From Nanobdellota archaeon (GTDB lineage: Archaea; Nanobdellota; Nanobdellia; Parvarchaeales; Parvarchaeaceae): a stretch of 62,658 nt of DNA. Where the stretch lies: the NCBI GenBank assembly GCA_021810345.1, contig JAJZIX010000004.1:1-62658 (forward strand), in the 5' to 3' direction. Of the stretch, positions 6,640 through 46,948 are shown one piece after another. The first letter of the stretch is position 1; each line of letters opens with the position of its first letter. The notes beneath the pieces were generated by a model, which saw nothing but the letters and a program-made list of their open reading frames with translations, was not told where the DNA came from and did no database searches. Made by a program: the position numbers and the translations under genes.

Positions 6640-8895
6640 ATGAATAGAAAATCACAGGTAATAAGCATTTTCTTTGCAGTGTTCTTGATAATAGCAGTCT
6701 TGAGCATCATCGGGCTTGAATCTGCAAACCTGAAAACCAACGAAAACATAAGCCAGATAGAGACCGCTTACACGCTCACAGACAATGCTTATCAATCCAT
6801 CTCAAACGTTTACAGCACCGCATATAATCTTGGGCTGTCCCCGCAGGCCATAAGCTTCCTGCAGAGCTCAGTAGCTGCTATAGCTGATACTTATATGATA
6901 AACTACCACCTGAACCTATCCGAGGGGATAGCACTGACGAATCCATCGACTTCGCTCCAGCCTACATCCTTCGTAGAGAAAGTACCCGTGACAATAACAA
7001 ACTCGCAGAATGCAGGGGTTGCACCCTTTCAGCAGATGATAAACTTCACTTCATCCGATCCAGGATGGAGTTATATGAATACATCTGCTGTGGGTTTCGG
7101 CCAAAACGTTGAATTCCTATACTCAAACGGGCAGGTGATTCCATCCTGGTTGGAGAGTTACAATCCGACCGATGGTGTATGGTGGATCAAATTGGGGAGT
7201 ATGCCTCCCTCTTCTTCAACAACAATATACATGGGATTTGCACCCCAAACAACAAATCTTTTCAATAATGTAAATGACGGTGAAGCTCCAACCCTTTCAG
7301 AAATCGTACAATCTAATGGTATTGAATATGCAGCGCCAATAACAATAGCGAATTCGCAGTCTTCAGCTACGCCTTCACCTTTCCAGCAGATGCTCAATAT
7401 ATCTTCATCCGTATACTCAAGCTATGCAGCATCAAACCTGCAGAATGTCGAATTCCTGTATAAGAATGGTACTGTGATACCTTCATGGCTGGAGCAGTAT
7501 ACTTCTTCGTATGCGATATGGTGGGTAAAGTTAGGTAGCATCCCGGCTGGTGGAAACGTTAAGGTTTATATGGGCTTTGCCTCGACTTCAACTAACCTGT
7601 TTAACACCAACGACGTCGGTGAAGCCCCGACTTTATCATCCAGTTATGGGGAATATGATGATGGAGCGAACGTTTTCAAGCTTTATACAAACTTTGCCGG
7701 GACTTCTGTGCCATCCGGATTCACGGAATACCACTCGTCTGATTCCTCAATATCAGTAAATAACGGTATAACATTTAACATTGGGGACAGCGACAATCCT
7801 GCCTATGCTTTTATCCTATACGGCAGCAATTTCCCAGACAGCGTTGTTGATGCAGAGATAACAAGCATACCGGTAGCCCAGGACGGCAGCACGGAATACC
7901 CTGGTTTCACCTCATCGACAATAGGCAACGGGATGGCGAATTATGTTGGTTTCGAATGGTATGAAACATGCGGTTATGTTTACCATGGTGATGAAATATA
8001 CAATGTAAGCGAAATTAGTAGCAACACTGGTGGATTAAACGCCCACACAATTATGTCCTCGTCAAATGCTTTTATAACTGGATACTATAATTACTCCACT
8101 ATTCTGTCATCAACAGACACCGCAACGCCTGCAGACACTTATCCCGTGCTCGGAGTTCAGACTGCAGGATCCAGCTCCGGTTGCCCAGACACGGAGGCAG
8201 CCTCATACCAATGGTATGATGTCAGAGCGGAACCACCAAACGGAGTAATGCCTTCCATAAGTGTAGGGGCAGTTGCTTCGAATGGATATTATGCGGAATA
8301 CGATGATGGAGCAAATGTATTCAGCAATTACTGGAATTTTGCCGGGGCAAGCCTGCCAAGTGGATGGAATTCAACAGAAACAGCTAGTTTAGCAGTAAAC
8401 AATGGGGTTTCTTTTACAGGTGCTTCTGGTGGCGGTAATGCAGCCCAAATAGTTTATACAACGGCAATTAATCCTCCTTTTGTGTTAGAATATGATGCAT
8501 ATTCAAGTGGGAATAACCCCGCAGGAGATTTGGCATATGTAAATCAATATGGCTCTGCCTTTTCAAATGGGTATCAAGCATTATTTTCTAATGGTGGAAC
8601 TAGCACAGATATAAACTATTGGTCTAGTGGTTCAATCACAACCGAAGCAAGCACAAGTGCAGGGCCTTCAGTATCACAAATTGAAAGTTATGCACCTATG
8701 TCTCTTGGGGTTGGTCCAAACATTGTTTGGGGGATGTGGAATTACCAGTATTACATTTCATGGTCTGCAACTCCAACTACAGGTTATTACATTGCATTAG
8801 GCAGTTGGTGGGATGATAAAACGATTCATATTCAGTGGGCCCGTGTTCGTGCTTATCCTCCAAACGGAGTGATGCCTTCCGTGAGTTTTGGCTGA
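6640..8895 (+). CDS. Large N-terminally anchored surface protein: 2 x DUF2341-like modules plus 2 x ConA/LamG-like modules
   Basis: 751 aa. N-terminus MNRKSQ plus hydrophobic helix. Clear internal duplications (see findings). Rich in N-x-S/T sequons. Confidence 0.75.
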   Translation: MNRKSQVISIFFAVFLIIAVLSIIGLESANLKTNENISQIETAYTLTDNAYQSISNVYSTAYNLGLSPQAISFLQSSVAAIADTYMINYHLNLSEGIALTNPSTSLQPTSFVEKVPVTITNSQNAGVAPFQQMINFTSSDPGWSYMNTSAVGFGQNVEFLYSNGQVIPSWLESYNPTDGVWWIKLGSMPPSSSTTIYMGFAPQTTNLFNNVNDGEAPTLSEIVQSNGIEYAAPITIANSQSSATPSPFQQMLNISSSVYSSYAASNLQNVEFLYKNGTVIPSWLEQYTSSYAIWWVKLGSIPAGGNVKVYMGFASTSTNLFNTNDVGEAPTLSSSYGEYDDGANVFKLYTNFAGTSVPSGFTEYHSSDSSISVNNGITFNIGDSDNPAYAFILYGSNFPDSVVDAEITSIPVAQDGSTEYPGFTSSTIGNGMANYVGFEWYETCGYVYHGDEIYNVSEISSNTGGLNAHTIMSSSNAFITGYYNYSTILSSTDTATPADTYPVLGVQTAGSSSGCPDTEAASYQWYDVRAEPPNGVMPSISVGAVASNGYYAEYDDGANVFSNYWNFAGASLPSGWNSTETASLAVNNGVSFTGASGGGNAAQIVYTTAINPPFVLEYDAYSSGNNPAGDLAYVNQYGSAFSNGYQALFSNGGTSTDINYWSSGSITTEASTSAGPSVSQIESYAPMSLGVGPNIVWGMWNYQYYISWSATPTTGYYIALGSWWDDKTIHIQWARVRAYPPNGVMPSVSFG

Positions 8896-10827: not shown

Positions 10828-11106
10828 TTATTTCTCACTGAAATTTATTTTCGTTTCCTTCTTTTCCGGCGAAAACGAGGCCAGAAGCTCCTTTAGCTTA
10901 TCATCATCTATGACGGATTTTAGCCTGTTTGAAAGGGCCGACTGGATTATTACGCTCTCGACCTGCTCCTCTATGTCGGGGTGCGCGTACTTTAGGTTGC
11001 TGAGCCTTTCCCTTGCTTCTTTGGTGAGGAACTTCGACATTATTTCCTGCTTCAGCGCCTCCAGCTTCCTCTTCTCCTCCAATGAATTCTGATCCAATTG
11101 CTGCAT
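10828..11106 (-). CDS. PDCD5/TFAR19-family DNA-binding protein
   Basis: 92 aa. ILSKFLTKEARERLSNLKYAHPD...IIQSA resembles the archaeal PDCD5 homologues (MTH1615 type). Conserved position after rps19e. Confidence 0.75.
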   Translation of the reverse strand: MQQLDQNSLEEKRKLEALKQEIMSKFLTKEARERLSNLKYAHPDIEEQVESVIIQSALSNRLKSVIDDDKLKELLASFSPEKKETKINFSEK

Positions 11107-11107
11107 A

Positions 11108-11536
11108 TCAATTACCCAGTCCTTTGGCGGTCTTGTCCAGCAGTGATACTCCCTTGCCGGTTATGACCCTTCCGTAATGGTTCTCAACCTTGACCTTCTT
11201 TATAAAACCTGCTTTTTCCAGCTGCTGCATGAGCTTCCTTATTATTGCACCGCCTGCCGGCTTAAAATGCCTCCCGCTGTACCTGTTCTTTTCCTTGTCG
11301 CCGTATACAGATCTCAGCCTGTTAACGCCTATCGGATGCTTGTCAATGTACATTCTTCTGAGTATGCTTGCCCCGCGCATGTACCACCAGTCTGGCTGCT
11401 GCGGTACTCTGTCCTTTGAGGAACCAGTCTTAACGAACTGGGACCAGGCCGGCGGCTCCAAGACTTTCTCTTTCTTGAGCTCTCCAGCAAGCGCTTTTGT
11501 TAGCTCTATCTGATCAACATCGTATGCCCTTATCAT
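11108..11536 (-). CDS. rps19e: 30S ribosomal protein S19e
   Basis: 142 aa. PPAWSQFVKTGSSKDRVPQQPDWWYMRGASILRRMY and GRHFKPAGGAIIRKLMQQLEKAG are S19e signatures. Confidence 0.9.
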   Translation of the reverse strand: MIRAYDVDQIELTKALAGELKKEKVLEPPAWSQFVKTGSSKDRVPQQPDWWYMRGASILRRMYIDKHPIGVNRLRSVYGDKEKNRYSGRHFKPAGGAIIRKLMQQLEKAGFIKKVKVENHYGRVITGKGVSLLDKTAKGLGN

Positions 11537-11838
11537 ATTCTCAATTTTCTAACACTACCACAATTTAAGCATTTATACGTTATAAAATTTTTATAAATGC
11601 GCAGAGATGCGGTCTTTCCAGGTATAAGTATTTTAGTACAGTTCCTGCATATTAAAACCTTTTTGTTCTTCGGCAGCCTTAGTTTTTTCGACAGTATTAT
11701 CCTGTAAGCTATGTAGGCGTACCTGTCCGCAAGCTTAGGATCATCTTTATAGACCTCATAGGCCATTTCCAGAAGTTTTTCGACATCCCTGGTGAATTTA
11801 GCCTTGTTTTTAGTGTCAACCATAGACCTAATACGCAA
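11533..11838 (-). CDS. rnp4: RNase P protein component 4 (Rpp21/Rpr2)
   Basis: 101 aa. N-terminal helical LADRYAYIAYRI, then a zinc ribbon CRNC...17 residues...CLNC. Confidence 0.75.
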   Translation of the reverse strand: MRIRSMVDTKNKAKFTRDVEKLLEMAYEVYKDDPKLADRYAYIAYRIILSKKLRLPKNKKVLICRNCTKILIPGKTASLRIYKNFITYKCLNCGSVRKLRI

Positions 11839-11986
11839 ACACCTTATATATCGTTATTTCAGGTTGATTTGTAATAATTACAACAAAAAAGCAGAAGGAA
11901 AAATTTATAAAGAAATGATTTCATTGAGAAGGTGAGATGCAATGCCGCCGCAAGCGCCACTGCAAATAAAAAAATAGGAGGTCGTT

Positions 11987-12115
11987 ATGGCTAAGAAACC
12001 CACGAAGGAAAAGAAGGATGAGGACATCATCGAGGACCAGGAGTTCGAAGACGATGTGGATGACACAGAGTTAGATGATGAGAAGATGGACGACGACACA
12101 GAAGACTCAGAGTAA
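11987..12115 (+). CDS. Small acidic protein candidate (42 aa), unannotated
   Basis: ATG preceded by AGGAGGT (6-nt spacer). Translation: MAKKPTKEKKDEDIIEDQEFEDDVDDTELDDEKMDDDTEDSE. Followed by a long T-run. The track ORF on the opposite strand (11905-12186) is a Ser-rich mirror image. Confidence 0.35.
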   Translation: MAKKPTKEKKDEDIIEDQEFEDDVDDTELDDEKMDDDTEDSE

Positions 12116-12126
12116 ACGATAAAAAC

Positions 12127-12147
12127 TTTTATTTTTTTTGTTTTTTT
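12127..12147 (+). terminator. Oligo-T tract (archaeal-type terminator candidate)
   Basis: TTTTATTTTTTTTGTTTTTTT lies directly after the small acidic ORF stop. Confidence 0.35.
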
Positions 12148-12640
12148 ATACTTTTCTAAGCACAAGAACAAGATTCTCATTTTCAAACTGTTCTGATATT
12201 ACTCCTTCTTTCTTGTCTCTCCTGAGTATCTTAAGGTAAAGCTTCTTTCCATTCAGGGCGCGCACTTCTATCGAGTTCTGCATCTTGCTTACTTTTATGT
12301 CATGCTTGCTCTTTACGCCGGGCAGACTTATCGCATGCACTATTGTATCGCCATGCGTCGAAACCAGGTCTTCTGGCTCGATCACCTCACTGACATCCGA
12401 CATTGCCTTATCGGCTTTCTGCTTGCTATATGGCCGTGAAGCCTCCTGCTCCGGCTGGAACACCCCACCGTTGGCTATCCCGTTCAATATCTGCGGTATG
12501 ACCTTCTGGACAACCTTTGTAAGGTCTATGCTTATGCCGTTCATCTCAGAGTCTGTAAAATGAAGCGGCCTGCCGCAGTTAGGGCAAAAATTCCAGTCTT
12601 TTGATATAATTTCACCGCAGAATTTGCACTTTTGAACCAT
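12146..12640 (-). CDS. Zinc-ribbon protein fused to an HSP20/alpha-crystallin-like domain
   Basis: CKFC...CPNC ribbon at the N-terminus. The C-terminal THGDTIVHAISLPGVKSKHDIKVSKMQNSIEVRA...LVLVLRKV looks like an ACD/p23 beta-sandwich. Start chosen at MVQKCKFC because GGAGG lies 8 nt upstream. The track ORF extends to 12673. Confidence 0.6.
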   Translation of the reverse strand: MVQKCKFCGEIISKDWNFCPNCGRPLHFTDSEMNGISIDLTKVVQKVIPQILNGIANGGVFQPEQEASRPYSKQKADKAMSDVSEVIEPEDLVSTHGDTIVHAISLPGVKSKHDIKVSKMQNSIEVRALNGKKLYLKILRRDKKEGVISEQFENENLVLVLRKV

Positions 12641-12755
12641 AAAACAATCCTCCAATATGATTCTTAGGCTCACAGTGTATTTAAATTTTACTAAACGGGT
12701 TTCAGCGCAAGCAGTTGGGCGAAAGAGTTAAATTCTGTGAAAACCAGTATTTAGT

Positions 12756-12980
12756 ATGATCAAGTCTTTGGTGTTGCTGGGATTGATTCTTCTTGGGGTA
12801 GGGCTTGTGACCCTTCTTGGGTTTTATGTACCGGACCTCACAACATACATCAAACAGATATTCTCATATATACCGCTGAAAGCCTATTATGTCTCCATAA
12901 TAATAACATTGGTGGGTCTGCTGTTCGTTGTTGTTGGCGCAAAGAAATCAAAGATGGGAAAGTATTACAGATATTATTAA
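12756..12980 (+). CDS. Small two-helix membrane protein
   Basis: 74 aa, two hydrophobic helices, basic C-terminus. No recognisable family. Confidence 0.45.
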   Translation: MIKSLVLLGLILLGVGLVTLLGFYVPDLTTYIKQIFSYIPLKAYYVSIIITLVGLLFVVVGAKKSKMGKYYRYY

Positions 12981-16603: not shown

Positions 16604-17443
16604 TCAAGGATGAATGCTTGATACTATTATTGTGAACAGTGGGTTACCAAAGATTATTGTTATCAAAGCCCCTATAAAAACACCAGGTATAAAAGGAAGG
16701 CCAACTTTCACGATAACGTACTTCACTCCTTCTTTCTTCAGCTTTTCTATGTCCTCCTTGAGCAGGCCAATCTTCCTTTGCTTCAATATTATGGTGCCAT
16801 CCTCGACTACGTCCCCTGCAAGCCAGTCCCCTTCAACGAGCTTGTCGACTTCAACCCTGAAAAACATAAGATTATCGGCAACCAGATAGATGTAGCGCAT
16901 CGAAACTAGCAGAAAGGCGATCAGCGATATCAAAACATCGAATGGAAAAGGAAGAAAGAAAAGCGCATATAGTATCGCTGCGACACCCAATGAGATGAGA
17001 GCAACGTCGTACTTCCTGAGCAGCTTGGACATCTTCTTAGGATGGATAGCGCCGATGAACAGCGTGCCCAGCAACCCGTATACTCCCCCAAATATCAGGA
17101 TGTTTATGAAAAGTGATATAAAGGATGTCCTTGATGTGGGCGAGATAGCTGTGAAAACAACCGCTAGGCCAAGCATCAACTTCACGTCCCCGCCGCCCCA
17201 CTGCCCCATGTAGTACATCGCGTAGGCAAACCCGAAAAGCAGGCCTATAGACAGCGGCATGTATACTAGATTTCCTATTGAATACGATGCTATAGAATAA
17301 AATAACGACAGCATTAGCCCCCCTATTATAAGGATATAGCTTATAAAGTCGGGTACTTCCCTCTTCCTTGCATCAAAAACCGAGGCCGCTCCAAGTATCA
17401 ACAGCACAAAAACAAATATAAGCAGACTAATTTCATATATCAT
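16604..17443 (-). CDS. A24-family prepilin/preflagellin peptidase (PibD/FlaK/EppA type)
   Basis: 279 aa polytopic. Both catalytic-Asp motifs are present (RKREVPDF and GGGDVKLM). A soluble insert (VDKLVEGDWLAGDVVEDG...KKEGVKYVIVKVGLPF) precedes the last helix, comparable to the inserted soluble domain described for FlaK. Confidence 0.85.
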   Translation of the reverse strand: MIYEISLLIFVFVLLILGAASVFDARKREVPDFISYILIIGGLMLSLFYSIASYSIGNLVYMPLSIGLLFGFAYAMYYMGQWGGGDVKLMLGLAVVFTAISPTSRTSFISLFINILIFGGVYGLLGTLFIGAIHPKKMSKLLRKYDVALISLGVAAILYALFFLPFPFDVLISLIAFLLVSMRYIYLVADNLMFFRVEVDKLVEGDWLAGDVVEDGTIILKQRKIGLLKEDIEKLKKEGVKYVIVKVGLPFIPGVFIGALITIIFGNPLFTIIVSSIHP

Positions 17444-18178
17444 ATGCTATACTTAATTGGTACGGGATTGTTCTATTTAAATGATTTGCCGCTCAGAGCG
17501 GTGGATCTGCTCAGCAAGGCGGATGAAGTGTTCATGGAAAATTACACGAACCTGATAGATATGAGCTTTTTAGGTCCGCTTGAAAAGACAATAGGCAAAA
17601 AAATAACCCTGATAGGCAGGGAAGAAACGGAAAATGAATCGATACTGGCTGATGCCGACAAAAAGACAGTATGCTTGCTAGTGCCCGGGGATCCGCTTGC
17701 TGCAACGACACATATGTCCCTGATATTGGCCTGCAGAAAAAGCGGCATAAAAACTAGAGTAGTGCATGCGTCGAGCATCTTCTCCGCAATAGCAGAGACT
17801 GGGCTGTCGCTCTACAAGTTCGGCGCGACAGTAAGCATCCCCTTATACGAGAAGAACTTCACCCCGGACAGCTTCTTTGATGGCATAAAGAACAATCTTG
17901 ATAAAGGGTTCCATACCCTTGTACTTCTCGAGGCAAGAAGCGAAAAGGAGTTCGTAGATGCAAATACAGCCGTCGAACTGATAAAAAACATAGAAAAAAG
18001 GAAGGGACTGAGGATCATAGACTGGAGAAACGTGCTGTACGCATCAAGGCTCGGAAGCGATGAAAGCAAGATAGGCTTCACTGAAAAACTTGACGTCGAC
18101 CTTAAACCCCCGATTTCACTCGTCATTCCTGGCAGGCTTAACGAAATTGAGAAGGAAGCGCTTGATAGCATCAACTAA
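17444..18178 (+). CDS. dphB: Diphthine synthase
   Basis: 244 aa. MLYLIGTGL...DEVFMENYT...VCLLVPGDPLAATTH is the tetrapyrrole-methylase-fold Dph5 signature. Confidence 0.92.
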   Translation: MLYLIGTGLFYLNDLPLRAVDLLSKADEVFMENYTNLIDMSFLGPLEKTIGKKITLIGREETENESILADADKKTVCLLVPGDPLAATTHMSLILACRKSGIKTRVVHASSIFSAIAETGLSLYKFGATVSIPLYEKNFTPDSFFDGIKNNLDKGFHTLVLLEARSEKEFVDANTAVELIKNIEKRKGLRIIDWRNVLYASRLGSDESKIGFTEKLDVDLKPPISLVIPGRLNEIEKEALDSIN

Positions 18179-19046
18179 CGGACACTGGCATCGGTGAGGA
18201 TTCTACGCAGTAGTTGTACCCTGCACTGATATTTATATCGGCCCCTGTCGTATATCCTGAAGCCGCAGTCACTGGCTGTGTCTCCAACTGTATTGGAAAT
18301 GGAGAAATCAGCTTGCCGGAACTAAAATTGAGCTGGTAGCTGCTCGAGCTTAGATTCACAAAACCGTGTACAGGAATAACCGCACCCGAGGCGCTTGTGT
18401 AGTACACTGTCAAGCCGCCCACTGCAATATCAAGCCATTTCAAGCCGGAAGTCGAACCCAAAGCCCCGCTCTGGCTTGCTGATATATAGTAAGTGCTGTT
18501 GGTTGGAGTAGGCGGCGCAGTTACGATGTCAGCCAGTCCGTCAACCGACAAAGAGAGCGGCGTAAAGGATGATGAAGATTCAAATCCAGACGGCGGAGTG
18601 CCGGAGAAAGAAGGGTTTTTGAGCGTTATTGGGTAATTGGTGAAAGAAACCGAATTGAAGCACGCCATGAACGTTATAGAGCAGCTTGTCGAGCTTGAAG
18701 AAGAGAAGTTCCAAACGAGGGAAGAGGACGAACCCGGATAAACCTCAACGTATTTCTTTGCAAGTGGGAGAAATGCACAGCCAAACGAGGTGAGCGACAC
18801 GTTGATAGGATCAGGTGAGTAATCGTATACGGATGAGATTATCTTCATGTTCTGTTGCGGGTACAGATTCAGCAGGTTTGAGGTCGATGAAACGGAAAGG
18901 GCTATCGGCACGGTGCTGTTGTAAAGAGCTGGCTGCGAATGAAAGTTGAGGTAACCTGCATTGTACATGTACGCAATCGCTACAATTGCTATGACAACCA
19001 CCGCTAAAATGGCGATTCCTGAACCTCCCTGAGATCTTTTGTGCAT
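18171..19046 (-). CDS. Surface paralogue 1 (fifth gene of operon): anchored Ser/Thr/Asn-rich protein
   Basis: 291 aa. N-terminus MHKRSQGGSGIAILAVVVIAIVAIAY. C-terminal AGYNYCVESSPMP. Many N-x-S/T sequons. Confidence 0.7.
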   Translation of the reverse strand: MHKRSQGGSGIAILAVVVIAIVAIAYMYNAGYLNFHSQPALYNSTVPIALSVSSTSNLLNLYPQQNMKIISSVYDYSPDPINVSLTSFGCAFLPLAKKYVEVYPGSSSSLVWNFSSSSSTSCSITFMACFNSVSFTNYPITLKNPSFSGTPPSGFESSSSFTPLSLSVDGLADIVTAPPTPTNSTYYISASQSGALGSTSGLKWLDIAVGGLTVYYTSASGAVIPVHGFVNLSSSSYQLNFSSGKLISPFPIQLETQPVTAASGYTTGADINISAGYNYCVESSPMPVSVS

Positions 19047-19047
19047 A

Positions 19048-19980
19048 TCAACCGCAGTCTATTATATTTGGAGACCCCTGTACATAGAAAAAATAATTAT
19101 ATTTCACTGCAATATTTACCAAATCCTGCGTTGTGGCCGTTATATTCCTTGCGGTTATCTCGATTGGCAGCCCACTGGCCAGAAGTGGCATATAAACGTT
19201 ATTAATCTGCGCAGTCAAAAGGCCCCCGGGGGATGAGGTAAAATCCACCTTCTGACCATTGTAGAATACAAATGCCGATGCTATGCCGCCGTTGAAGGAG
19301 GTATTCGATATTGATATGTATATGCTGCTGATGTCGTCATTAGGAGTTCCTGATGTTATCTCGGTGTAGGGGGCCCCACCCGCGTATGTCGAGTTTGAGA
19401 AGACTATGTTTATGTTACTCTCCGGGACTGTCGACGGAAGCTGCGTCTCTATCGAGATTGGATTGGCGATTATCGGAATGAACCCCTGCATGCTGTTATT
19501 ATATATAGATACTGGAATCAGTTTGCTGGCTGTACCATAGGGGTACGTCACAACAGAAGTCGTGAAATTGTCCCAAAATGACGGCACAGCGACTGAAAAT
19601 ATGTAAGTTGACTGGCCTGAGTTTGTCAGGCATGTCACATTGAACGAAGATGAACTGGATGAGGGCATTGACGCGGGCATATAGATGCTGCGGTATGGCG
19701 TCGATGTCGACACGTACGCCGGCTCGCCAAGGCTCAGCGAAACGTTTGCAGTTAGAGTCTGGCTGAACGGATTATAGAAATCCAGAAGTATTGATGAAGA
19801 ATGCCCCTTGAGTATCTGCCCGGACGGAGAGACCGCAGACACGGTAAAGGCACCGGGCTTCGATGCTGAATGCGAAGAGGCAATGTTACCGATTCCGTGG
19901 TAGGCAATTATTACTATAATTATTGCAACAACAAGCAGGATCAAAAAAATCATGCTCCTATTTTGGCCTAGCCTATCCAT
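19048..19980 (-). CDS. Surface paralogue 2 (fourth gene of operon)
   Basis: 310 aa. N-terminus MDRLGQNRSMIFLILLVVAIIIVIIAY. C-terminal AVKYNYFFYVQGSP...DCG. Confidence 0.7.
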   Translation of the reverse strand: MDRLGQNRSMIFLILLVVAIIIVIIAYHGIGNIASSHSASKPGAFTVSAVSPSGQILKGHSSSILLDFYNPFSQTLTANVSLSLGEPAYVSTSTPYRSIYMPASMPSSSSSSFNVTCLTNSGQSTYIFSVAVPSFWDNFTTSVVTYPYGTASKLIPVSIYNNSMQGFIPIIANPISIETQLPSTVPESNINIVFSNSTYAGGAPYTEITSGTPNDDISSIYISISNTSFNGGIASAFVFYNGQKVDFTSSPGGLLTAQINNVYMPLLASGLPIEITARNITATTQDLVNIAVKYNYFFYVQGSPNIIDCG

Positions 19981-20015
19981 ATCTCATATTATTGGGCTTA
20001 TTGTATTTAAGCATT

Positions 20016-20942
20016 TTAAGAATAAGTATAAGTTTCGGCGCTCAGATAAATTGGGAAAAACCCATCCTCCTCATAATTGTAAGAGAGAGCAACATGCACG
20101 TCAAATGGGGGTGAATAAGGCGCAGATGTTGAAGTAAGGCCGCTCATTTCAGCCGGGTTGAGTCCAATCGGCATTTCCATAGTTAGGCCGCTTGTCCCAA
20201 GGTTAAGCAGGAATGAGAACACCGTGGTGCCATTTGGATATGAGAAAACCTTAGCGCCATCTGGGGGGGTTGTTATGTTTATGAATGCGCTGTTCATCGA
20301 GATATTCATTGCAACGGGGCCGAGGACTATCCCGTTTCCAACATTATCGAGTATAAGCTGCAGAAGGGCATCATTTCCGTAAGCGACGGGAGCGACCGAA
20401 GTTGCAACTGCTACAGGGCCTGCAGTCCTGCTAAATGAAGTGGAGGGCATGGTTGCTCCGGATGAAAGAGTATTCTGTGAAGCAAAAATGACCGATTGGG
20501 TAGCTGATGATGTGTACGAGAAGTTTACGAAATACCCGATATCCTGCGTGTATGGAATGTTGCCATATTCGCCTACTGACGGTGATGTAAGAGAGAATGA
20601 TTCGGACAGCACGCCCCCCGCAAAAAGCGATGGGATACCGACGCAGTGTGACGATGAGGAGACAGAAAACAGCCCTAAATCATCAAGGCAAAGATTTATG
20701 TTTTTCGCCGAATTACCAGCAAGGTTATTTGACACCCTGAAATTAATACTAAACGAAGATGATGGGGAGACGAGATTAGGATACGAATAGTTGACTAGGA
20801 CACCTTCTGTGATTGGCAGCGGCGCCGGACCCGGGGAATATGTGAAATACAGAAATGCAGCCACTATTATCAGTATAAAAATAAGCGCAAAAGCCGCTGT
20901 TCCTCCCTGTGCCCCAAGTTTGCCTTCCATGATCAACCGCAT
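20016..20942 (-). CDS. Surface paralogue 3 (third gene of operon)
   Basis: 308 aa. N-terminus (MRLI)MEGKLGAQGGTAAFALIFILIIVAAF. C-terminal ALSYNYEEDGFFP. An alternative start at 20930 would lie 2 nt after the upstream stop. Confidence 0.7.
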   Translation of the reverse strand: MRLIMEGKLGAQGGTAAFALIFILIIVAAFLYFTYSPGPAPLPITEGVLVNYSYPNLVSPSSSFSINFRVSNNLAGNSAKNINLCLDDLGLFSVSSSSHCVGIPSLFAGGVLSESFSLTSPSVGEYGNIPYTQDIGYFVNFSYTSSATQSVIFASQNTLSSGATMPSTSFSRTAGPVAVATSVAPVAYGNDALLQLILDNVGNGIVLGPVAMNISMNSAFINITTPPDGAKVFSYPNGTTVFSFLLNLGTSGLTMEMPIGLNPAEMSGLTSTSAPYSPPFDVHVALSYNYEEDGFFPIYLSAETYTYS

Positions 20943-22402
20943 GCTGTCGTTTGGTTTTGAACTACAAACGGCACATTGAGCCGCTGTATATAATTGTAAT
21001 TAGCATAAGCCAGAACTGGAATCGTGTCAAAATGGAGCCCATTCAGCGTCTGAAGGGCTGGCAGAGTGAAGAAAAAGTTTGAGCTTGACTGCAGAAGCAC
21101 GGGATTTGATATTGTGCAGTTCCAGTAGCCGGAGGGGAAGACAAAGTTTTGCCTCTGCATGCCAGATGAAACCTGGCAGGCCCACAACCCATTCGAAGGA
21201 TTTGTAGCTGGGTTGGAGCTAGACAGGGCTGTGCTTATGAACAAAGATAGAGAGTTCAGGTGGTATCCGCCGGTACCCGAGTTGCCGATGGATAAAGAAA
21301 TCGGGACCGCACCGAGCTTCGTGAGTATAGGCTCCAACGCATCTGTGGACAATTTTACCTGCACTGGCCCCGCGGCAGTAAACGATATCGAAGGCTGCAA
21401 TGGGATTAATGGTGATGATGAAATAAGTTTGGAATCAAAGCTCTGCGACACGAATTCAAGCGGCATTATCGAGGCCGTGCTGTAGTTGAAAACCGTGAAA
21501 TTCAATAGGAGTGAACCTCCTGTTGGGAAAGTTATCGGGGATGATGGACATTTGAACTGCACTAGCGTCGAATTCGTAATCTGTTGGGTCGGAAAAATCT
21601 CCTTGATCAATCCAACGTTTTCAACAACCGGCGGGAATGATTGTGAGGTCGCGGGTGGCTGCTCGAAAGTATTTATAAGGTCCTCACACACAGTTGCTGC
21701 CTGCTTTGAATAAGTATTTCCGCAGGACATATTAACCAGCACATTATTTGGGGTTCCGCCGCCCAATGGGACGTTGGAAGTATCCTTAACGGAATACTCA
21801 AAGCTCTGTGTCTCGGACGTGCCTGTCAAAGTGAGATACTGGTTCGGTGGGACTGTCAAAGCCAAAAATGATGTAAATGTCGGGGTTGCATTTGTGATAG
21901 TGGGCGGTGGTATCTGCGACGCGAATGGGTTTTCGATGAAAGCAAAGCCGCCGACTATACTATTCCAGAGCGAGGAGAAAAGGCTACTTATTTTGCCATA
22001 GGCCGAGCCATAGTGTATCTGCATATACGAATTAACGCTTGCAACCGCCGGGCTATGCGATATATAAGAGTATGCTACCACAAAGATTATAACTATCAAG
22101 ACCAAAAAAGGCAGTACTATCTTTGCAGCCCTTTTGTGTGCCCCAAAATTGAATACTTTGTTCTTAGCCTTCTCCTGCTTTCTAAGCATTTCAGCCTGCA
22201 TCTGGTAGTAAACATCCTGCGACGATTGTGGAGGTGGGATGGCGTTTTTCACTTTGCTGCTTCCAATGCCCTTATACATGGTGCGCACAAACTTGTTCTT
22301 AAGAAGTTTATTTTTTATACGCATTAGGCGCTTCTGGGTACCTTTCCCACTGCTTTTTTCGCCTTTATCAAGATCCTCGGCATTATTTATAATATCTGCC
22401 AT
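20933..22402 (-). CDS. Surface paralogue 4 (second gene): basic cytoplasmic N-terminal region of about 95 aa, one TM helix, large extracellular domain
   Basis: 489 aa. TM helix IVLPFLVLIVIIFVVAYSYI. C-terminal AYANYNYIQRLNVP...ACG. Confidence 0.7.
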   Translation of the reverse strand: MADIINNAEDLDKGEKSSGKGTQKRLMRIKNKLLKNKFVRTMYKGIGSSKVKNAIPPPQSSQDVYYQMQAEMLRKQEKAKNKVFNFGAHKRAAKIVLPFLVLIVIIFVVAYSYISHSPAVASVNSYMQIHYGSAYGKISSLFSSLWNSIVGGFAFIENPFASQIPPPTITNATPTFTSFLALTVPPNQYLTLTGTSETQSFEYSVKDTSNVPLGGGTPNNVLVNMSCGNTYSKQAATVCEDLINTFEQPPATSQSFPPVVENVGLIKEIFPTQQITNSTLVQFKCPSSPITFPTGGSLLLNFTVFNYSTASIMPLEFVSQSFDSKLISSSPLIPLQPSISFTAAGPVQVKLSTDALEPILTKLGAVPISLSIGNSGTGGYHLNSLSLFISTALSSSNPATNPSNGLWACQVSSGMQRQNFVFPSGYWNCTISNPVLLQSSSNFFFTLPALQTLNGLHFDTIPVLAYANYNYIQRLNVPFVVQNQTTACG

Positions 22403-22434
22403 ATCTAACCCTACTCATCGAGTCCTTATAAAAG

Positions 22435-23637
22435 TTAAGAGAAAGTGGAAATCGAAAGGTACTGTGGTATAATGAGCCCATTGGTGGAGACAGTTATTGT
22501 TCCAGTGTAATTTCCATTGGCGTTGTTGCCGGATAGGTAGTAGGATGGGAAGATCATCACGTTCTCCCCTGCGGTCAAATTAGAGCTTGGTATAGTGTAC
22601 TTATAGCCAGACGGGTAAAAGGAAAAAGTAACGCTGCCGCTGTAAAGTATCTGATTGAGGTAAAACACCGACTCATATTCCGTTGAGCTTGAAACGACTG
22701 AAAAGGGGAAGGTGACATTGTTGTATTTTATCTGTGGCAGACTATATACAAGCTCTGCGTTTGATATCTCGTAGTGAACTCCTTTTGAAGGCACGAATCC
22801 GACATTAAACGTTACCGGCAGAACAACGGAAGATGACTGCGGTATTGCAGCAGAAACTACACTTTGCGGTATAGTCACATTCTCTGTGCTATCGCTACCA
22901 CTGGATATCTGCGATATCACGTTGTTGTTGACTGTGATATTCAAGTTGCCCGTACCTATTGGTGAATAGCTGATAGTGTAGAGTCCAAGCCCGCTTAGTG
23001 TCAAGACTTTGACGGGGACTATGTTTGCTGCAAGGTTAGAGGTGGACTGCACGAAAGCCACACTGGAGAAAGACGCAGACTGCCAAAATGCAAACCCATT
23101 GAGTGAGACCACCATTGAAAGGCTGTTTGATTTATTTGATACCGTCGGCAGCTCTAAGTAAAGCACGGATCCGGAGGATAGTATGTTAGATGCAAACTTG
23201 TTGCCATTGAGCGAAACCGTAAGTCTAGGGTTTCCAGAGACAGAAGCCACGTGAACAACCAATAGGTACTGGTCTGATTGGCTCCCATTGAAGTTAATAG
23301 TATAGGAGGAAGATCCGAATATTGACGCGGAAAGCGAGAACTGTGTCTTATTCAGAAGAGTCACGTTTTTCTGCAGGTAAGAGACACCAAATGTCCCTAT
23401 CTGGTAATTAAAGCTTTTCCCGCTAGATATACCACCAATATAGCTTGTGAATGGATAATAGAATGAGCCAGGGGGGTGCGAGGAGGTTACGTTTGCTGGC
23501 GCAGGTGTTGTAGTATTGCCGGATATAAGATTATAAGCAGTCTGTGGGGGTACCATCAGCAGATATACTATTATGAACCCTATCATTGCTATAATGAGCA
23601 TGACAACTGCTGGTATTCGCTCTCTTACTTCTGCCAT
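22435..23637 (-). CDS. Anchored Ser/Thr/Asn-rich surface protein (first gene of operon; lacks the YNY motif)
   Basis: 400 aa. N-terminus MAEVRERIPAVVMLIIAMIGFIIVYLLMV. Very high density of N-x-S/T sequons. Confidence 0.7.
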   Translation of the reverse strand: MAEVRERIPAVVMLIIAMIGFIIVYLLMVPPQTAYNLISGNTTTPAPANVTSSHPPGSFYYPFTSYIGGISSGKSFNYQIGTFGVSYLQKNVTLLNKTQFSLSASIFGSSSYTINFNGSQSDQYLLVVHVASVSGNPRLTVSLNGNKFASNILSSGSVLYLELPTVSNKSNSLSMVVSLNGFAFWQSASFSSVAFVQSTSNLAANIVPVKVLTLSGLGLYTISYSPIGTGNLNITVNNNVISQISSGSDSTENVTIPQSVVSAAIPQSSSVVLPVTFNVGFVPSKGVHYEISNAELVYSLPQIKYNNVTFPFSVVSSSTEYESVFYLNQILYSGSVTFSFYPSGYKYTIPSSNLTAGENVMIFPSYYLSGNNANGNYTGTITVSTNGLIIPQYLSISTFS

Positions 23638-23658
23638 AATCTATTTACTACACTAAAA

Positions 23659-23666
23659 TATATAAA
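23659..23666 (-). promoter_or_regulatory. TATA box (TTTATATA on minus strand) for the surface-protein operon; implies a leaderless or near-leaderless mRNA
   Basis: Minus strand reads GGTTTATATATTTTAG. The box ends 22 nt upstream of the ATG at 23637, matching the usual archaeal TATA-to-TSS spacing. Confidence 0.35.
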
Positions 23667-23707
23667 CCTATCTGCTAACAAAAAACTCCCGAAAACTACA
23701 ATTTTTC

Positions 23708-31676: not shown

Positions 31677-32273
31677 TCAATGAGGGGTTTCCCTTGTCAT
31701 CGCATATACAGCAACCGCCATTGCACCAAGCGTCAGCAGCAGAGAAAGCACTGATGGATTTGTAAGGATACCAAGGACATACGCTGAATTCAAGTACGAT
31801 GGGAAGGTTGTCGATGAACTTATTGAAGAAACCGCGCCAGACGAACTGCTATTAACCGAGGTAGGATGAGAAGTAGTGGATACGACGTGACTGGTCGAAG
31901 AGTAGAAAAGTGCGCTTGTATTACCGAAAGCTATCAACCCGAATATAAACATCACAAGCACCAAAATCGCAGGGACAAGAGTACTTTTTTTGAGATAGCC
32001 TGAAACGGCTTCGCTCGGCACTCCTATAGTGTATAGCAGCAGGAGTATGAGGAACAGGAACACTAGTATCGCCAACACATACGGCAGAAATTGCAGTATA
32101 AATGCAACGAAGAACGATGAAGCCAACGCGGCAAAAGCGACTGCCAACGCTATCAAAGCTGGCAGGTCTGAGGCCGTAAAGAACTTCGACCTTGAGAGAA
32201 GACCGTATACTATTGTGAATACTAATAGAAACACAATTAAATCATACGCACCGAATACAACCGATAATATCAT
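31677..32273 (-). CDS. Polytopic membrane protein, paralogue A
   Basis: 198 aa. YDLIVFLLVFTIVYGLLSRSKFF motif. Ser/Thr-rich loop. Confidence 0.6.
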   Translation of the reverse strand: MILSVVFGAYDLIVFLLVFTIVYGLLSRSKFFTASDLPALIALAVAFAALASSFFVAFILQFLPYVLAILVFLFLILLLLYTIGVPSEAVSGYLKKSTLVPAILVLVMFIFGLIAFGNTSALFYSSTSHVVSTTSHPTSVNSSSSGAVSSISSSTTFPSYLNSAYVLGILTNPSVLSLLLTLGAMAVAVYAMTRETPH

Positions 32274-32279
32274 ATTTAC

Positions 32280-32894
32280 TTACTGTTTTTTGCCGCCGCC
32301 CGAAAAGGCAATTGCCAGCGCAATTATTAAAATCCCAAAAACAATCAGCACGCCAAGGTACTGAGTTGTAAGTGAGGATATCACGCCGGATAGCTCGCTG
32401 CCGGTTGAGCCGTTGGCACCAGGCACAAATGCGTGCGAAAACAGCCCCCCTCCAAGGAACAAAACAAGGATGGCAACGACGAATACTGCCCCGGAAACAC
32501 GCGAATTTGCCTTCAAATCAACGCCAGCGAGCGAAGCGACTGCGAGTATCGCCACAAGTATCAAAGCCGTGACCGCCAGAGTGGATGACATGTAGACCAG
32601 CACTGGGCTGACCCATACGACCGTAACCGCAAAGAACGAGATTATCATAGATACTATTGCACGAGCAGACCTATTTGAGTCTTCGCTGAAGAAGCTTATC
32701 CTCTTTAGTACTGTGTTTAATATCGCAAGTATAAGCAGAAAAGCCAGCCAGAACTCGAGCGGATTCGTTACATTCGCAGGTGTTATCACAGCAAGAGCAT
32801 TATTTATCTGCGAAAAGATCGAACCCTGAACTGCTGCTACCATAAGCGTATAAGAACTTTTATAGTATTTAAACTTTTGTAAGGTTATCCTCAC
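32280..32894 (-). CDS. Polytopic membrane protein, paralogue B
   Basis: 204 aa. LEFWLAFLLILAILNTVLKRISFF motif. Confidence 0.6.
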   Translation of the reverse strand: MRITLQKFKYYKSSYTLMVAAVQGSIFSQINNALAVITPANVTNPLEFWLAFLLILAILNTVLKRISFFSEDSNRSARAIVSMIISFFAVTVVWVSPVLVYMSSTLAVTALILVAILAVASLAGVDLKANSRVSGAVFVVAILVLFLGGGLFSHAFVPGANGSTGSELSGVISSLTTQYLGVLIVFGILIIALAIAFSGGGKKQ

Positions 32895-32913
32895 TTAAAA
32901 GTGATTCAATTGT

Positions 32914-33465
32914 TTACTTTGACAATAGGTACCCAGCAAGGACCAGAAAAACGAAGACTATTATGTAGGGCAGGTAGCTTGTCAGGTTGCTGCTCACCGC
33001 TTTTGAGGATATACCGGCAAAAGTCAGGTTTGCGGTGGTCAAAACCCAGATTACCAGCCCCAATGATATTACTACCGCCAGCACAGTTATTATTTTCTTT
33101 ATACTGCTTGGAAGGGATGCATCGCTTCCGCCATAAGCCATTGAAGCCAGTATCAAAAGCATGAATATCACCACTGCTATTATGCCGGCTATCGGAAGTA
33201 TCAAGAATGTGAGCTTTAAAGTGTAGTTTGTCGTCGCGAAAACTATACCCAAGACAAATGCGATTATAGCGTTTATATCGCTCTTGCCCTTGAACATGTT
33301 GCTTCTCTCAAGGACGCCGTAGGTTATCGCAAAAACCAGCAGAAAAGGAAACAAAAATGACTCTATCCCGCTGTAAAGTATGGAAACCCCCGATGCTTTT
33401 GATGTCAGTGTATTATTCAAATTACTAGTATTATTGGCAAATGACAAAACATAAGCGCTTAACAT
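32914..33465 (-). CDS. Polytopic membrane protein, paralogue C
   Basis: 183 aa. ESFLFPFLLVFAITYGVLERSNMF motif. Confidence 0.6.
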   Translation of the reverse strand: MLSAYVLSFANNTSNLNNTLTSKASGVSILYSGIESFLFPFLLVFAITYGVLERSNMFKGKSDINAIIAFVLGIVFATTNYTLKLTFLILPIAGIIAVVIFMLLILASMAYGGSDASLPSSIKKIITVLAVVISLGLVIWVLTTANLTFAGISSKAVSSNLTSYLPYIIVFVFLVLAGYLLSK

Positions 33466-45088: not shown

Positions 45089-46948
45089 TCAGCGCCTTCT
45101 CTTACCCTTAGATTTTGAGGTTTTCTGGTTAAGCTTTATCTTGCCCCTCCTGACAAGACTAAACAGCCTATATTCGTAGAAGAAACCGCCGACTGCTATC
45201 CCCACCGCAAGGCCAAGAACTATGTAGGCAGCTATCTCGTAATACGACAGTGTGGAAGGATGCACTGATATAGGCTGGAGCGAGGGAGTATAAGGTATCG
45301 GCTTCGCGCTCGAAACGGCCACTCCAAGGCCTGTGAACAGCCTGGCCTCCGATTCAAATGTAAGGTAGTGGTAAACCGAGGTATTCTCAAAGGTCTCCCC
45401 GTATGTGTAGTAGCTTATCCCAAGGAACGGTGTGATGCCCGACGCTTCTGCTGAGTTTATGGACCTTAGGGCTGACAGCCCAACCTGGTTCAAAACGTCC
45501 TGGGCGGTCGAGTTGCTTATCGCGCTGTTCTCCTCTATCACCATATCAGCGGTGCTCATTGCTTCTATAGAGGCAAATATAGACGGAATGTAGTTCCCCT
45601 GGCTGAACCTTGCCTGAGACTCATTCAGGTAAAATTGTATTTCACTGAGCTGGGAAGGCGAATTAACTCCAAGCAGAGACGCGTAATAGCTGTACGATGC
45701 GGCCTTGTAAAGGTAGTAATCGCTCAGGTTCTCATATGTTGACTGCGAGAAATTGGACTGGCCCATCGGTAGTATCGACACCCAAAAGTAAGCTGTATGC
45801 CTCTTTACCGTCGCTACACTGTAATTGAAGAGAGCGCCGTAGAGATTGCCAGATGCAAGGGAGGAATTCGCAGACGCGAGGTAGTCCTGCGCTTGCTGCA
45901 GCCTGTCAAGTGCTATAAACTTGAGAATCAATGTTGATGAGTTCGTTATGTAATTAGAGCTTATATTGGCCACTGTTGCAGAAACAAGGGAGCTCTCCCT
46001 GGATATGAGCGACTGCATATAAGCCGTAGAATTCGACTGCGTGGCAAGGTTCTCCAGTGTCTTCGCCTCCAGCAGATAAGCCGAGGTGGTTATCATTTGG
46101 CTTGCGGCGGTGTAGTAGCCCCCACTTGCCGCCTCAGACTGCTCCTGGCTCATCTGGGATGAAGCCGTATTTATCAGAGACTGTATGTTGCTGTTTGAGC
46201 TGTTCTTCTGCGGCAATGACGAGTAGAGGCCATTTTGGTAGGCATTGAATCCCTCGTAGGTGCCCTTCATGAGCGAATTATAAAGAGGGGTGACTATGCT
46301 GTAGTTCACCGCAGGAGTTATATTGTATCCCGTGAAATAGTCATACGCCTGATAAACAGAGCTTATGGGGACCGGCACCATACCATGGTTCTCATCGTAT
46401 GACATCGCAGCGGATGAGATATTGTCGGATGAAGGATAAAGGAATATTTTTATGCCCATATTCGCTGCGGCCTCGCTCTTCTCTGATACGTCTCCGACTA
46501 TACCCATGCTTCCATCTGGGTTAGCCGTGCCGGTCATCGCGATGTTTTTGTGCAGCGGCTTGCCGCTTAATATAGACATTGCTGTTATCGCGAAAGCTGC
46601 GCCCGCGCTAGGACCTCCTACTTCGGCTGATGATGAAGTTATGTAATAGTAGAAATTGTAATTGGCGCAGTTGATGTTGAGAAGATTGCATGCTACATCC
46701 ACAGAGACCACGGCCTGCGCCTGCGTGTCTATCTGGGTAAGCGGAGTTGATCCAAGGAAGACCTGTCCAGTCCCGTTTGTCACGGTCAGGTTCAGCAGCG
46801 CCGGCACGCCCACGGTTGTGCCGTTTACAGTGGTAACGCCGAATATGTACACTCCTGCGCTACCGACGGTCTGCGCGTTTGCCCTGCCCAATGCAAACAG
46901 AAACACTAAACCGAATAACAGTACAAATATGTATTTTGTCTTGATCAT
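45089..46948 (-). CDS. Exported, C-terminally anchored protein with Lon-protease (S16) proteolytic domain
   Basis: 619 aa. Sec-type signal (...ALGRANA/QT). VGGPSAGAAFAITAMSIL.GK......AMTG...PDGSMGIVGDVSEKSEAA carries the Ser-Lys dyad contexts. Helical region of about 380 aa, then TM helix IAAYIVLGLAVGIAVGGFF and a basic tail. Confidence 0.75.
   Translation of the reverse strand: MIKTKYIFVLLFGLVFLFALGRANAQTVGSAGVYIFGVTTVNGTTVGVPALLNLTVTNGTGQVFLGSTPLTQIDTQAQAVVSVDVACNLLNINCANYNFYYYITSSSAEVGGPSAGAAFAITAMSILSGKPLHKNIAMTGTANPDGSMGIVGDVSEKSEAAANMGIKIFLYPSSDNISSAAMSYDENHGMVPVPISSVYQAYDYFTGYNITPAVNYSIVTPLYNSLMKGTYEGFNAYQNGLYSSLPQKNSSNSNIQSLINTASSQMSQEQSEAASGGYYTAASQMITTSAYLLEAKTLENLATQSNSTAYMQSLISRESSLVSATVANISSNYITNSSTLILKFIALDRLQQAQDYLASANSSLASGNLYGALFNYSVATVKRHTAYFWVSILPMGQSNFSQSTYENLSDYYLYKAASYSYYASLLGVNSPSQLSEIQFYLNESQARFSQGNYIPSIFASIEAMSTADMVIEENSAISNSTAQDVLNQVGLSALRSINSAEASGITPFLGISYYTYGETFENTSVYHYLTFESEARLFTGLGVAVSSAKPIPYTPSLQPISVHPSTLSYYEIAAYIVLGLAVGIAVGGFFYEYRLFSLVRRGKIKLNQKTSKSKGKRRR

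Follow-up and report, generated by a model that had tools for sequence, protein, structure and literature searches.

A stretch of 62,658 nt from contig JAJZIX010000004.1 of a Nanobdellota archaeon (Parvarchaeales; assembly GCA_021810345.1), hereafter called the window, contained five consecutive open reading frames (ORFs), which were labelled g1 to g5 in order of transcription and compared with loci L001 to L034. The evidence leaned towards a membrane-tethered heteromeric surface complex as the product of this array, more so than towards a pilus, and the locus would represent, in Parvarchaeales, a five-protein envelope module of DPANN type that is ancient and vertically inherited. In the proposed arrangement, g1 would be a bitopic protein with a conserved transmembrane (TM) helix and a beta-rich ectodomain resembling a carbohydrate-binding module (CBM), and g2 would span the membrane with a variable basic cytoplasmic tail and an immunoglobulin (Ig)-like ectodomain, while g3 to g5 would be held on the outer membrane face by a lineage-specific N-terminal anchor: (i) a lipobox with lipidation of the AliA type in most lineages and (ii) a class III-type signal, composed of a basic leader, the site [G/A/S]↓[A/Q] (the arrow marking the predicted processing point), and a hydrophobic helix, in Parvarchaeales. 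The neighbouring A24 prepilin-type peptidase would trim the leader of g3 to g5, and the helix would remain in the membrane as the anchor. The complex might serve envelope scaffolding or outer-layer anchoring, possibly with glycan binding through g1.

Twelve Parvarchaeales-type loci were obtained by a scan of species-representative genomes, and an exhaustive search with the g3 profile gave 90 representatives, about 77 of which were distant, with 41 of the distant ones being read. Most of these 41 distant g3 relatives started with a signal peptide containing the lipobox L-[AS]-G-C, and arrays like that of the window were found as follows: (i) identical five-gene order with similar sizes in L016/17, L019, L021, L024, and L028/29 (L028 being a 759-kb contig) and (ii) partial or variant arrays in L014, L018, L023, L025, L026, and L030 to L034. 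In the distant cassettes, position 1 was occupied by a TM-anchored protein, position 2 by a protein with a charged cytoplasmic tail plus a TM helix, and positions 3 to 5 by lipobox proteins with family-specific C-terminal signatures. Profile comparison (hhalign) of the window families with their distant positional counterparts gave probabilities of 99.8% for g1, 96.3% for g2, 99.7% for g3, and 97.3% for g5 (for g4, see below). The distant cassette members matched no Pfam or NCBIfam family above threshold, and the best matches to DUF11 were sub-threshold (22.6 bits versus 24.6 in one case and E 0.0037 in another).

Distant loci totalling 188 kb contained 37 lipobox ORFs, 240 kb of Parvarchaeales sequence contained 0, and g1 to g5 of the window displayed no N-terminal lipobox Cys. 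AliA is a recently identified archaeal lipoprotein lipidation enzyme that occurs, with gaps, among DPANN (PMC12462473). L031, which had a very acidic proteome, harbored g1, g2, and three lipobox paralogues with AliA_AliB (PF01889) inside the array, and L032 and L033 had AliA_AliB directly upstream of tandem lipobox paralogues; no AliA-like ORF was present in the 240 kb of Parvarchaeales sequence, which came mostly from one region. L013 contained a class III-like member beside a lipobox member. A class III-like signal was carried in the lipobox lineages by g1, not by g3 to g5, and g1 of Parvarchaeales had lost the G-Q. The g1 N-terminus in the lipobox lineages read K-[KR]-[G/A/S]-Q-x(0-4)-[YF]-[AG], with a conserved helix ending YP.ER. 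As in the window, DUF357 and dph5 stood alongside the array in L031 (10634-11558); the other distant neighbours were EndoQ-like (MJ0043_C), PAC2, Nop10, eIF2a, S27e, L44e, GINS, and primase genes, located downstream of the cassette in L016, L021, L023, L025, L028, and L034. Such shared flanks in distant lineages would imply an old and stable chromosomal position. No A24 and no pilus ATPase were found among the neighbours of the distant lipobox loci.

The N-terminal signals of the Parvarchaeales proteins were assessed by counting class III sites in alignment columns. The sites were K8-L9-G10↓A11, followed by a hydrophobic helix, in g3, R3-L4-G5↓Q6 in g4, and K3-R4-S5↓Q6 in g5. Among the orthologues, (i) g3 had G at -1 in 13/13 sequences, predominantly K or R at -2 and -3, and A or Q at +1 in 9/13; (ii) g4 had G or A at -1 and A or Q at +1, each in 9/9; and (iii) g5 had A or S at -1 and Q at +1, each in 9/12, and its -1 residue could be S, A, or V. 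Judged from these columns, the conserved site [KR][KR]-[G/A/S]↓[A/Q] of g3 to g5 is class III-like, and the Q-G-G junction that the initial annotation had noted in two of the proteins was not the conserved feature. The class III-like site was confined to g3 to g5, since g1 (RER[IV][PS]A) and g2 (with its 94-aa tail) of Parvarchaeales did not fit the pattern. Archaellins and pilins of the Methanococcus type are processed at sites of the form [KR]-G↓[A/Q], which the site in g3 to g5 matched, although the residues after it were small and polar, not hydrophobic. None of the five proteins matched the pilin/archaellin N-terminal families PF04021, PF07790, and PF01917 in Pfam at E up to 1. The identity of the helix versus that of the ectodomain was 0.26-0.31 versus 0.40-0.48 in g2 to g4 and 0.37 versus 0.38 in g5, and the relation was reversed in g1 (0.57 versus 0.45). 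The helices forming the filament core of known pilins are conserved, which is the opposite of the pattern in g2 to g4, and the lower conservation of the g2 to g4 helices compared to their ectodomains fits passive anchors, not a filament core.

The gene for an A24 aspartyl prepilin-type peptidase was recognized by PF01478 (E 8.9e-11, 42.6 bits versus a cut-off of 26.5) and by the catalytic motifs DARKREVP (containing D24) and GGGD (residues 83-86), and it was not a FlaK equivalog (24 bits versus 330). It was separated from g5 by dph5 (TIGR00522, E 3e-59) only, as had been annotated under the name dphB. The gene order MAP-FEN1-DUF357-g1-g2-g3-g4-g5-(dph5)-A24 was kept across the 12 Parvarchaeales-type loci; A24 was syntenic in L002 to L009, L012, and L014, i.e., in every Parvarchaeales locus with enough flanking sequence, and in L014, a deeper relative of the window clade, g1-g2-g3 directly abutted A24 and dph5. 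The adjacency of A24 to homologues of the array held within Parvarchaeales and did not extend to the distant arrays. Within Parvarchaeales, the adjacency of A24 taken alone carried little weight, because the housekeeping neighbours were conserved as well. g4 was absent from L003, L009, L010, and L014. In the metagenome-assembled genome (MAG) carrying L005, two transposase-like ORFs resembling insertion sequences (ISs) split g3 from g4 (10843-12802); co-transcription of g4 and g5 with g1 to g3 may be dispensable there, or that copy may be decaying.

All-against-all blastp of the five proteins gave nothing significant except a weak match of g1 with g2 (E 0.003). With Parvarchaeales-only alignments, hhalign aligned only g4 and g5 over the full length (probability 96.6%, 251 columns), and with distant orthologues included, the probabilities were 98.6% for g3-g5, 98.8% for g4-g5, 97.0% for g3-g4, and 95.2% for g2-g3; the matches among g2 to g5 extended over 249-270 columns (249 for g2-g3), and single distant proteins were matched jointly by the profile hidden Markov models (HMMs) of g2, g3, and g5. 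By these profiles, g2 to g5 are paralogues with two Ig-like domains, and g1 is unrelated to them, so that the paralogy of the last four genes asserted initially was borne out at the profile level while being invisible to blastp. The four proteins had also been assigned a common C-terminal Y-N-Y motif; a C-terminal motif was indeed common to them, being Y-x-Y with the middle N not conserved, and it was found in 20/22 sequences of g2, 23/25 of g3, 16/17 of g4, 14/20 of g5, and 0/19 of g1. Family-specific signatures were YxY[EFA]xxG in g3, an extra terminal Cys in g4, YxYC in g5, and a Cys-containing tail in g2. Y-x-Y lay 12-18 residues from the C-terminus in window g2 to g5 and fell in the last strand region of the g3 model (see below), and it is most simply taken as a structural motif, of the tyrosine-corner kind, in a strand near the end of the C-terminal Ig-like domain. 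A role of Y-N-Y as a sorting or processing signal was rejected, because N was not conserved and the motif was located in a late strand of the C-terminal domain.

The coordinates of the array and its associated features are listed in Table 1. The intergenic spacings from g1 to g5 were +32, -10, +35, and +1 nt, and the g5 stop overlapped the convergent dph5 by 8 nt. As read from the sequence, a purine-rich B recognition element (BRE) preceded TTTATATA, which was located 22-29 nt upstream of the g1 ATG, and this spacing would imply a leaderless or near-leaderless transcript. The TATA element recurred at identical distance to g1 in 8 further Parvarchaeales loci and was present as GGTTTTTAA in distant loci; this recurrence exceeds chance and supports the promoter and its leaderless spacing better than one sequence could. 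A TATA-like TTTTATAA was also located at 22426-22433 (minus strand), its centre lying about 27 nt before the g2 ATG and just past the g1 stop, and it may be an internal promoter giving g2 to g5 a separate transcript. Each of the five proteins had one strongly hydrophobic segment and a content of S+T+N of 27-33%. The initial annotation had described the array as five co-directional ORFs of these sizes spaced by -10 to +35 nt, with a TATA box of its own at leaderless spacing, a single hydrophobic helix in each protein, a basic N-terminal region of about 95 aa in g2, and many N-x-S/T sequons, and it proved right on all these points except the last, on which it was right in part: 38 sequons were present, being only a modest excess (about 1.4 times) over the approximately 28 expected from composition.

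Table 1. Locations of the five-gene array, its promoter, the neighbouring peptidase gene, and the distant g1 genes with a class III-like N-terminus
Feature	Position	Strand	Description
g1	22435-23637	minus	400 aa, bitopic protein
g2	20933-22402	minus	489 aa, tail, TM helix, and ectodomain
g3	20016-20942	minus	308 aa, class III-like signal and two Ig-like domains
g4	19048-19980	minus	310 aa, class III-like signal, paralogue of g5 and g3
g5	18171-19046	minus	291 aa, class III-like signal
Module promoter (BRE/TATA)	23659..23673	minus	TTTATATA preceded by AGATAGG
A24 aspartyl prepilin-type peptidase	16604-17443	minus	279 aa, about 6 TM segments, PF01478
K-[KR]-[G/A/S]-Q g1	L016 1532-2656; L019 768-1967; L024 4400-5626; L026 2571-3821; L028 5095-6312		

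g1 displayed a conserved TM helix (residues 9-30) followed by a linker and a beta-rich multi-domain ectodomain, and the AlphaFold2 model (mean predicted local distance difference test score, pLDDT, 82.9) showed a low-confidence linker (residues 32-51) between a helix (residues 10-28) and a beta-rich ectodomain. The Foldseek matches listed for this model were Cry toxins, BcsB, sugar-binding domains of glycoside hydrolases (GH2/GH35), and CBM51, all with template-modelling (TM) scores <0.25, and a CBM-like match in Pfam was sub-threshold; a CBM/jelly-roll-like character of the ectodomain is consistent with these low scores and the sub-threshold match, and carbohydrate binding by g1 is hinted at. 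The g1 family comprised 36 clusters, all at >=40% identity (i.e., at least 40%) and all from Parvarchaeota where named. An exact look-up found the window proteins in MAGs labelled Candidatus Parvarchaeota.

The 94-aa basic cytoplasmic tail of g2 (22 K+R versus 8 D+E) preceded the TM helix at residues 95-116, and Y-N-Y was found at residues 469-471 ahead of the Cys-containing C-terminal tail. The cytoplasmic tail varied in sequence and length (about 45 to >300 aa) across lineages and was otherwise of low complexity; in the g2 orthologues of L002 (8493-10010) and L004 (8442-9962), it contained a C2H2 zinc-finger-like motif, YVCP[ET]CG...F..[RK]..L.DH.L.VHG. g3 had two invariant cysteines (C85 and C100), an invariant G10, and S-Y-N-Y-E-E-D-G-F at residues 287-295, and its family comprised 10 clusters among 5.8 billion proteins. 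In the AlphaFold2 model of g3 (mean pLDDT 64), a disordered linker joined a helix at residues 13-34 to two beta-sandwich domains, and the 50 PDB matches listed by Foldseek were generic tandem Ig/fibronectin type III (FnIII) folds at TM scores of about 0.25. In g4, Y-N-Y occupied residues 294-296 and the C-terminus carried a conserved Cys, and g5 had Y-N-Y-C at residues 277-280.

No Pfam or NCBIfam family was matched above threshold by any of g1 to g5, and g1, g2, and the g3 profile matched no PDB sequence at E up to 1, in keeping with the initial description of these families as undescribed. No specific family was assigned from the Foldseek searches with the g1 and g3 models, because all matches were generic and had TM scores <0.3. 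An identity as surface-layer (S-layer) proteins was also rejected: the five proteins matched no S-layer model in NCBIfam (TIGR01564/TIGR01567 type; SlaA/SlaB), and the S-layer protein of Micrarchaeota is another one, of 101 kDa (bioRxiv 10.1101/2021.04.28.441871).

Taken together, the strict gene order and the one-to-one orthology suggest a fixed-composition, presumably N-glycosylated, membrane-proximal heteromer, not a type IV filament. Each signal type tended to be accompanied by a matching maturation gene (AliA beside lipobox proteins and A24 beside class III-like proteins), which supports A24 acting on g3 to g5, and lipid-anchored orthologues cannot supply a pilin core helix, which undermines g3 to g5 as filament-forming pilins. 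Surface proteins other than pilins are also reported to carry class III signals widely (bioRxiv 10.64898/2026.04.22.720090). Of the surface assembly proposed in the initial annotation, the anchored surface proteins of undescribed families and a plausible link to A24 stood, and the framing as pilins or a filament was weakened.

Several points weigh against the tethered complex or its wider history: (i) residue +2 in g3 to g5 was mostly G, S, or N, i.e., small or polar rather than hydrophobic, while the strict FlaFind-type pattern has a hydrophobic residue at +2, and most of g3 to g5 would fail it; (ii) the taxonomy of most of the distant loci was deduced from gene content only, with one labelled Micrarchaeota MAG; (iii) g4 reached only 11.9% in hhalign with the distant position-4 protein and thus lacked direct support as its orthologue; (iv) AliA adjacency was found in 3 of 9 long distant loci, which possibly share ancestry; (v) the sequence suggestive of Parvarchaeales being devoid of lipoproteins and AliA came mostly from the same region and was not whole-genome; and (vi) g1, with its class III-like signal in the lipobox lineages, looks the most pilin-like component, and a pilin-like role for it stays conceivable on its N-terminal sequence and well-conserved helix.

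An extension of the tethered complex would be a multi-subunit surface machine ancestral to DPANN, in which g1 and g2 form a transmembrane base, the three paralogues with exchangeable anchors build a defined extracellular structure, either a device for contact or attachment or a strand-exchange fibre, underlying the cell-host connections of ARMAN/DPANN, and the g2 tail couples inward; we entertain this extension with considerable reserve, as a speculative possibility.

A type IV filament, in which g3 to g5 would be A24-cleaved minor or major pilin-like subunits, g1 and g2 would be base or accessory proteins, and the ATPase and platform would be encoded elsewhere, was considered unlikely. It accounts for the conserved [KR][KR]-[G/A/S]↓[A/Q] ahead of a hydrophobic helix and for the syntenic A24, and other observations would agree with it. 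A 914-aa protein encoded between g1 and g2 in L002 (4846-7590) harbored a repeat of about 60 aa (TWTCTTTFSETGLPSSQ...), matched no Pfam family, and displayed the pilin-like N-terminus 'GGNDAQSAVEYLISWGWVLVVV', including 'DAQSAVEYL'; after it, within 7340-8218, came a small ORF starting MKKTEKAGIAVLGVV. In the window itself, a 751-aa protein (6640-8895, plus strand) had the N-terminus MNRKSQ plus a hydrophobic helix, which was class III-like as in g5, and carried a DUF2341 domain (E 2e-12), a domain that has been proposed as part of PilY-like adhesins at the pilus tip, encoded in type IV pilus loci of archaea (PMC4858521); this protein suggests that the genome has some pilus-type system. Some DPANN possess TFF system 1 (bioRxiv 10.64898/2026.04.22.720090).

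The assembly machinery was looked for in the window and around the loci. As initially annotated, no pilus ATPase or platform was present in the 62-kb window, in which the only ORF with a Walker A motif was FtsY/SRP54, and no FlaI/PilB ATPase or FlaJ/TadC platform was found within 8-10 kb of the module in L001 to L034 (>20 loci). In archaea it is normal for pilin genes to lie apart from the ATPase locus, and several pilin sets can be served by one ATPase/TadC pair (PMC4858521), so that a missing ATPase is not unusual in itself because distant pilin loci have been described. The filament was nevertheless weakened by the lipobox orthologues of g3 to g5, in which a pilin core helix is not possible, by the g2 to g4 helices being below the ectodomains in conservation, by the unmatched pilin N-terminal models, and by a size of about 300 aa with two domains, which is large for major pilins.

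About as improbable as the filament would be a set of independent adhesins, i.e., tandem paralogous, glycosylated surface proteins with no obligate complex, whose order is kept by low recombination in compact genomes. Copy number was variable, with g4 missing from some loci (see above), an extra copy in L023, and 4-7 tandem paralogues in L030, L032, and L034; the IS insertion between g3 and g4 was tolerated in L005, and Ig-like folds are generic, all of which would suit independent proteins. One-to-one positional orthology and family-specific C-terminal signatures persisted in very distant lineages, however, the unrelated g1 and the tail-bearing g2 were always first in the cassette, and reading frames that overlap (-10 nt) or abut (+1 nt) would point to their expression being coupled. 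Least probable of all was a strand-exchange fibre, in which g2 to g5 would polymerise via the C-terminal Y-x-Y strand by analogy with type V (FimA/Mfa) pili, with g2 or g1 as the anchor: the four homologous two-beta-sandwich subunits, the lipoprotein precursors in most lineages, and the conserved C-terminal strand motif would fit it, but none of the 50 matches that Foldseek listed for the model of g3 (pLDDT 64) was of FimA/Mfa type, there was no sign of a processing protease or a vacant groove, and Y-x-Y is equally explained as an ordinary Ig-like structural strand.

To our knowledge, DPANN live by surface contact with hosts, and their envelope proteins are almost wholly unstudied. The cassette was undescribed in the literature searched on Parvarchaeales/ARMAN pili and DPANN lipoboxes. 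It constitutes a module without family annotation whose order was kept in Parvarchaeales and probably in Micrarchaeota and halophile-like relatives, and the conserved order together with the core synteny makes it a candidate fundamental component of the DPANN envelope. One orthologous set with two anchors (lipobox/AliA and class III/A24) amounts to a natural experiment in swapping tethering chemistry; the anchor type would be a genomic handle on lineages that gave up lipoproteins, and the module supplies defined targets for work on the few DPANN-host systems in culture.

Other ORFs were observed elsewhere on the minus strand of the window. A 619-aa protein (45089-46948) combined a Lon_C (S16) match (E 2e-9) with a Sec-type signal (…ALGRANA↓Q) and, at the C-terminus, a TM anchor, and it looks like an unusual, surface-exposed protein with a Lon-like protease domain. 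Three small proteins of 198, 204, and 183 aa with 4-5 TM segments each were encoded at 31677-33465, and after these came a 251-aa single-TM protein with a sub-threshold Pfam match only.

The array was also compared with five known systems. Bacteroidia type V pili (FimA-E and Mfa1-5) are encoded by five-gene sets of homologous two-domain lipoprotein precursors that undergo donor-strand exchange. The likeness is one of analogy only, consisting of a five-gene set, two-beta-sandwich lipoprotein precursors, and a functionally important C-terminal strand; type V pili differed in belonging to another domain of life and another type of envelope, sequence and fold were unmatched, and g1 to g5 gave no sign of polymerisation. 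CARDB/DUF11 Ig-like surface proteins shared with the module the beta-sandwich ectodomains and an RNNxxGxxAxN-type strand-loop signature, with the sub-threshold DUF11 matches in two distant members, but the thresholds of PF07705 and PF01345 were never reached, and the module displayed a fixed two-domain unit, a C-terminal signature of its own, and a five-gene cassette.

Compared to archaeal type IV pilins (Methanococcus Epd/EppA; TFF system 1), the module had similar [KR]-G↓Q-type N-termini, multiple genes per operon, A24 nearby, and an adhesin-like DUF2341 protein in the same window, but it differed in (i) unmatched pilin models, (ii) a poorly conserved helix, (iii) orthologues devoid of the helix, (iv) no linked ATPase or platform, and (v) about twice the usual size of major pilins. 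AliA/AliB lipoproteins (Haloferax volcanii) resembled the equivalents of g3 to g5 in most lineages, which had canonical lipoboxes and were adjacent to AliA in three loci; lipoprotein genes near aliB have been noted (PMC12462473). Unlike these lipoproteins, the window proteins had no lipobox Cys, and Parvarchaeales seemingly replaced the anchor.

The sugar-binding proteins of the Sulfolobus 'bindosome' carry class III signals and are processed by PibD, and they are not filament subunits. g1 to g5 differed from them in being Ig-like or CBM-like, not solute-binding, in having no linked ATPase/membrane pair of the Bas type, and in having lipobox orthologues. In both systems, extracellular proteins of at least 300 aa start with a short basic leader that has a small residue at -1 and is followed by a hydrophobic helix, and the genome encodes an A24 prepilin-type peptidase; in the window proteins, as in the bindosome, the helix would act as the membrane tether.

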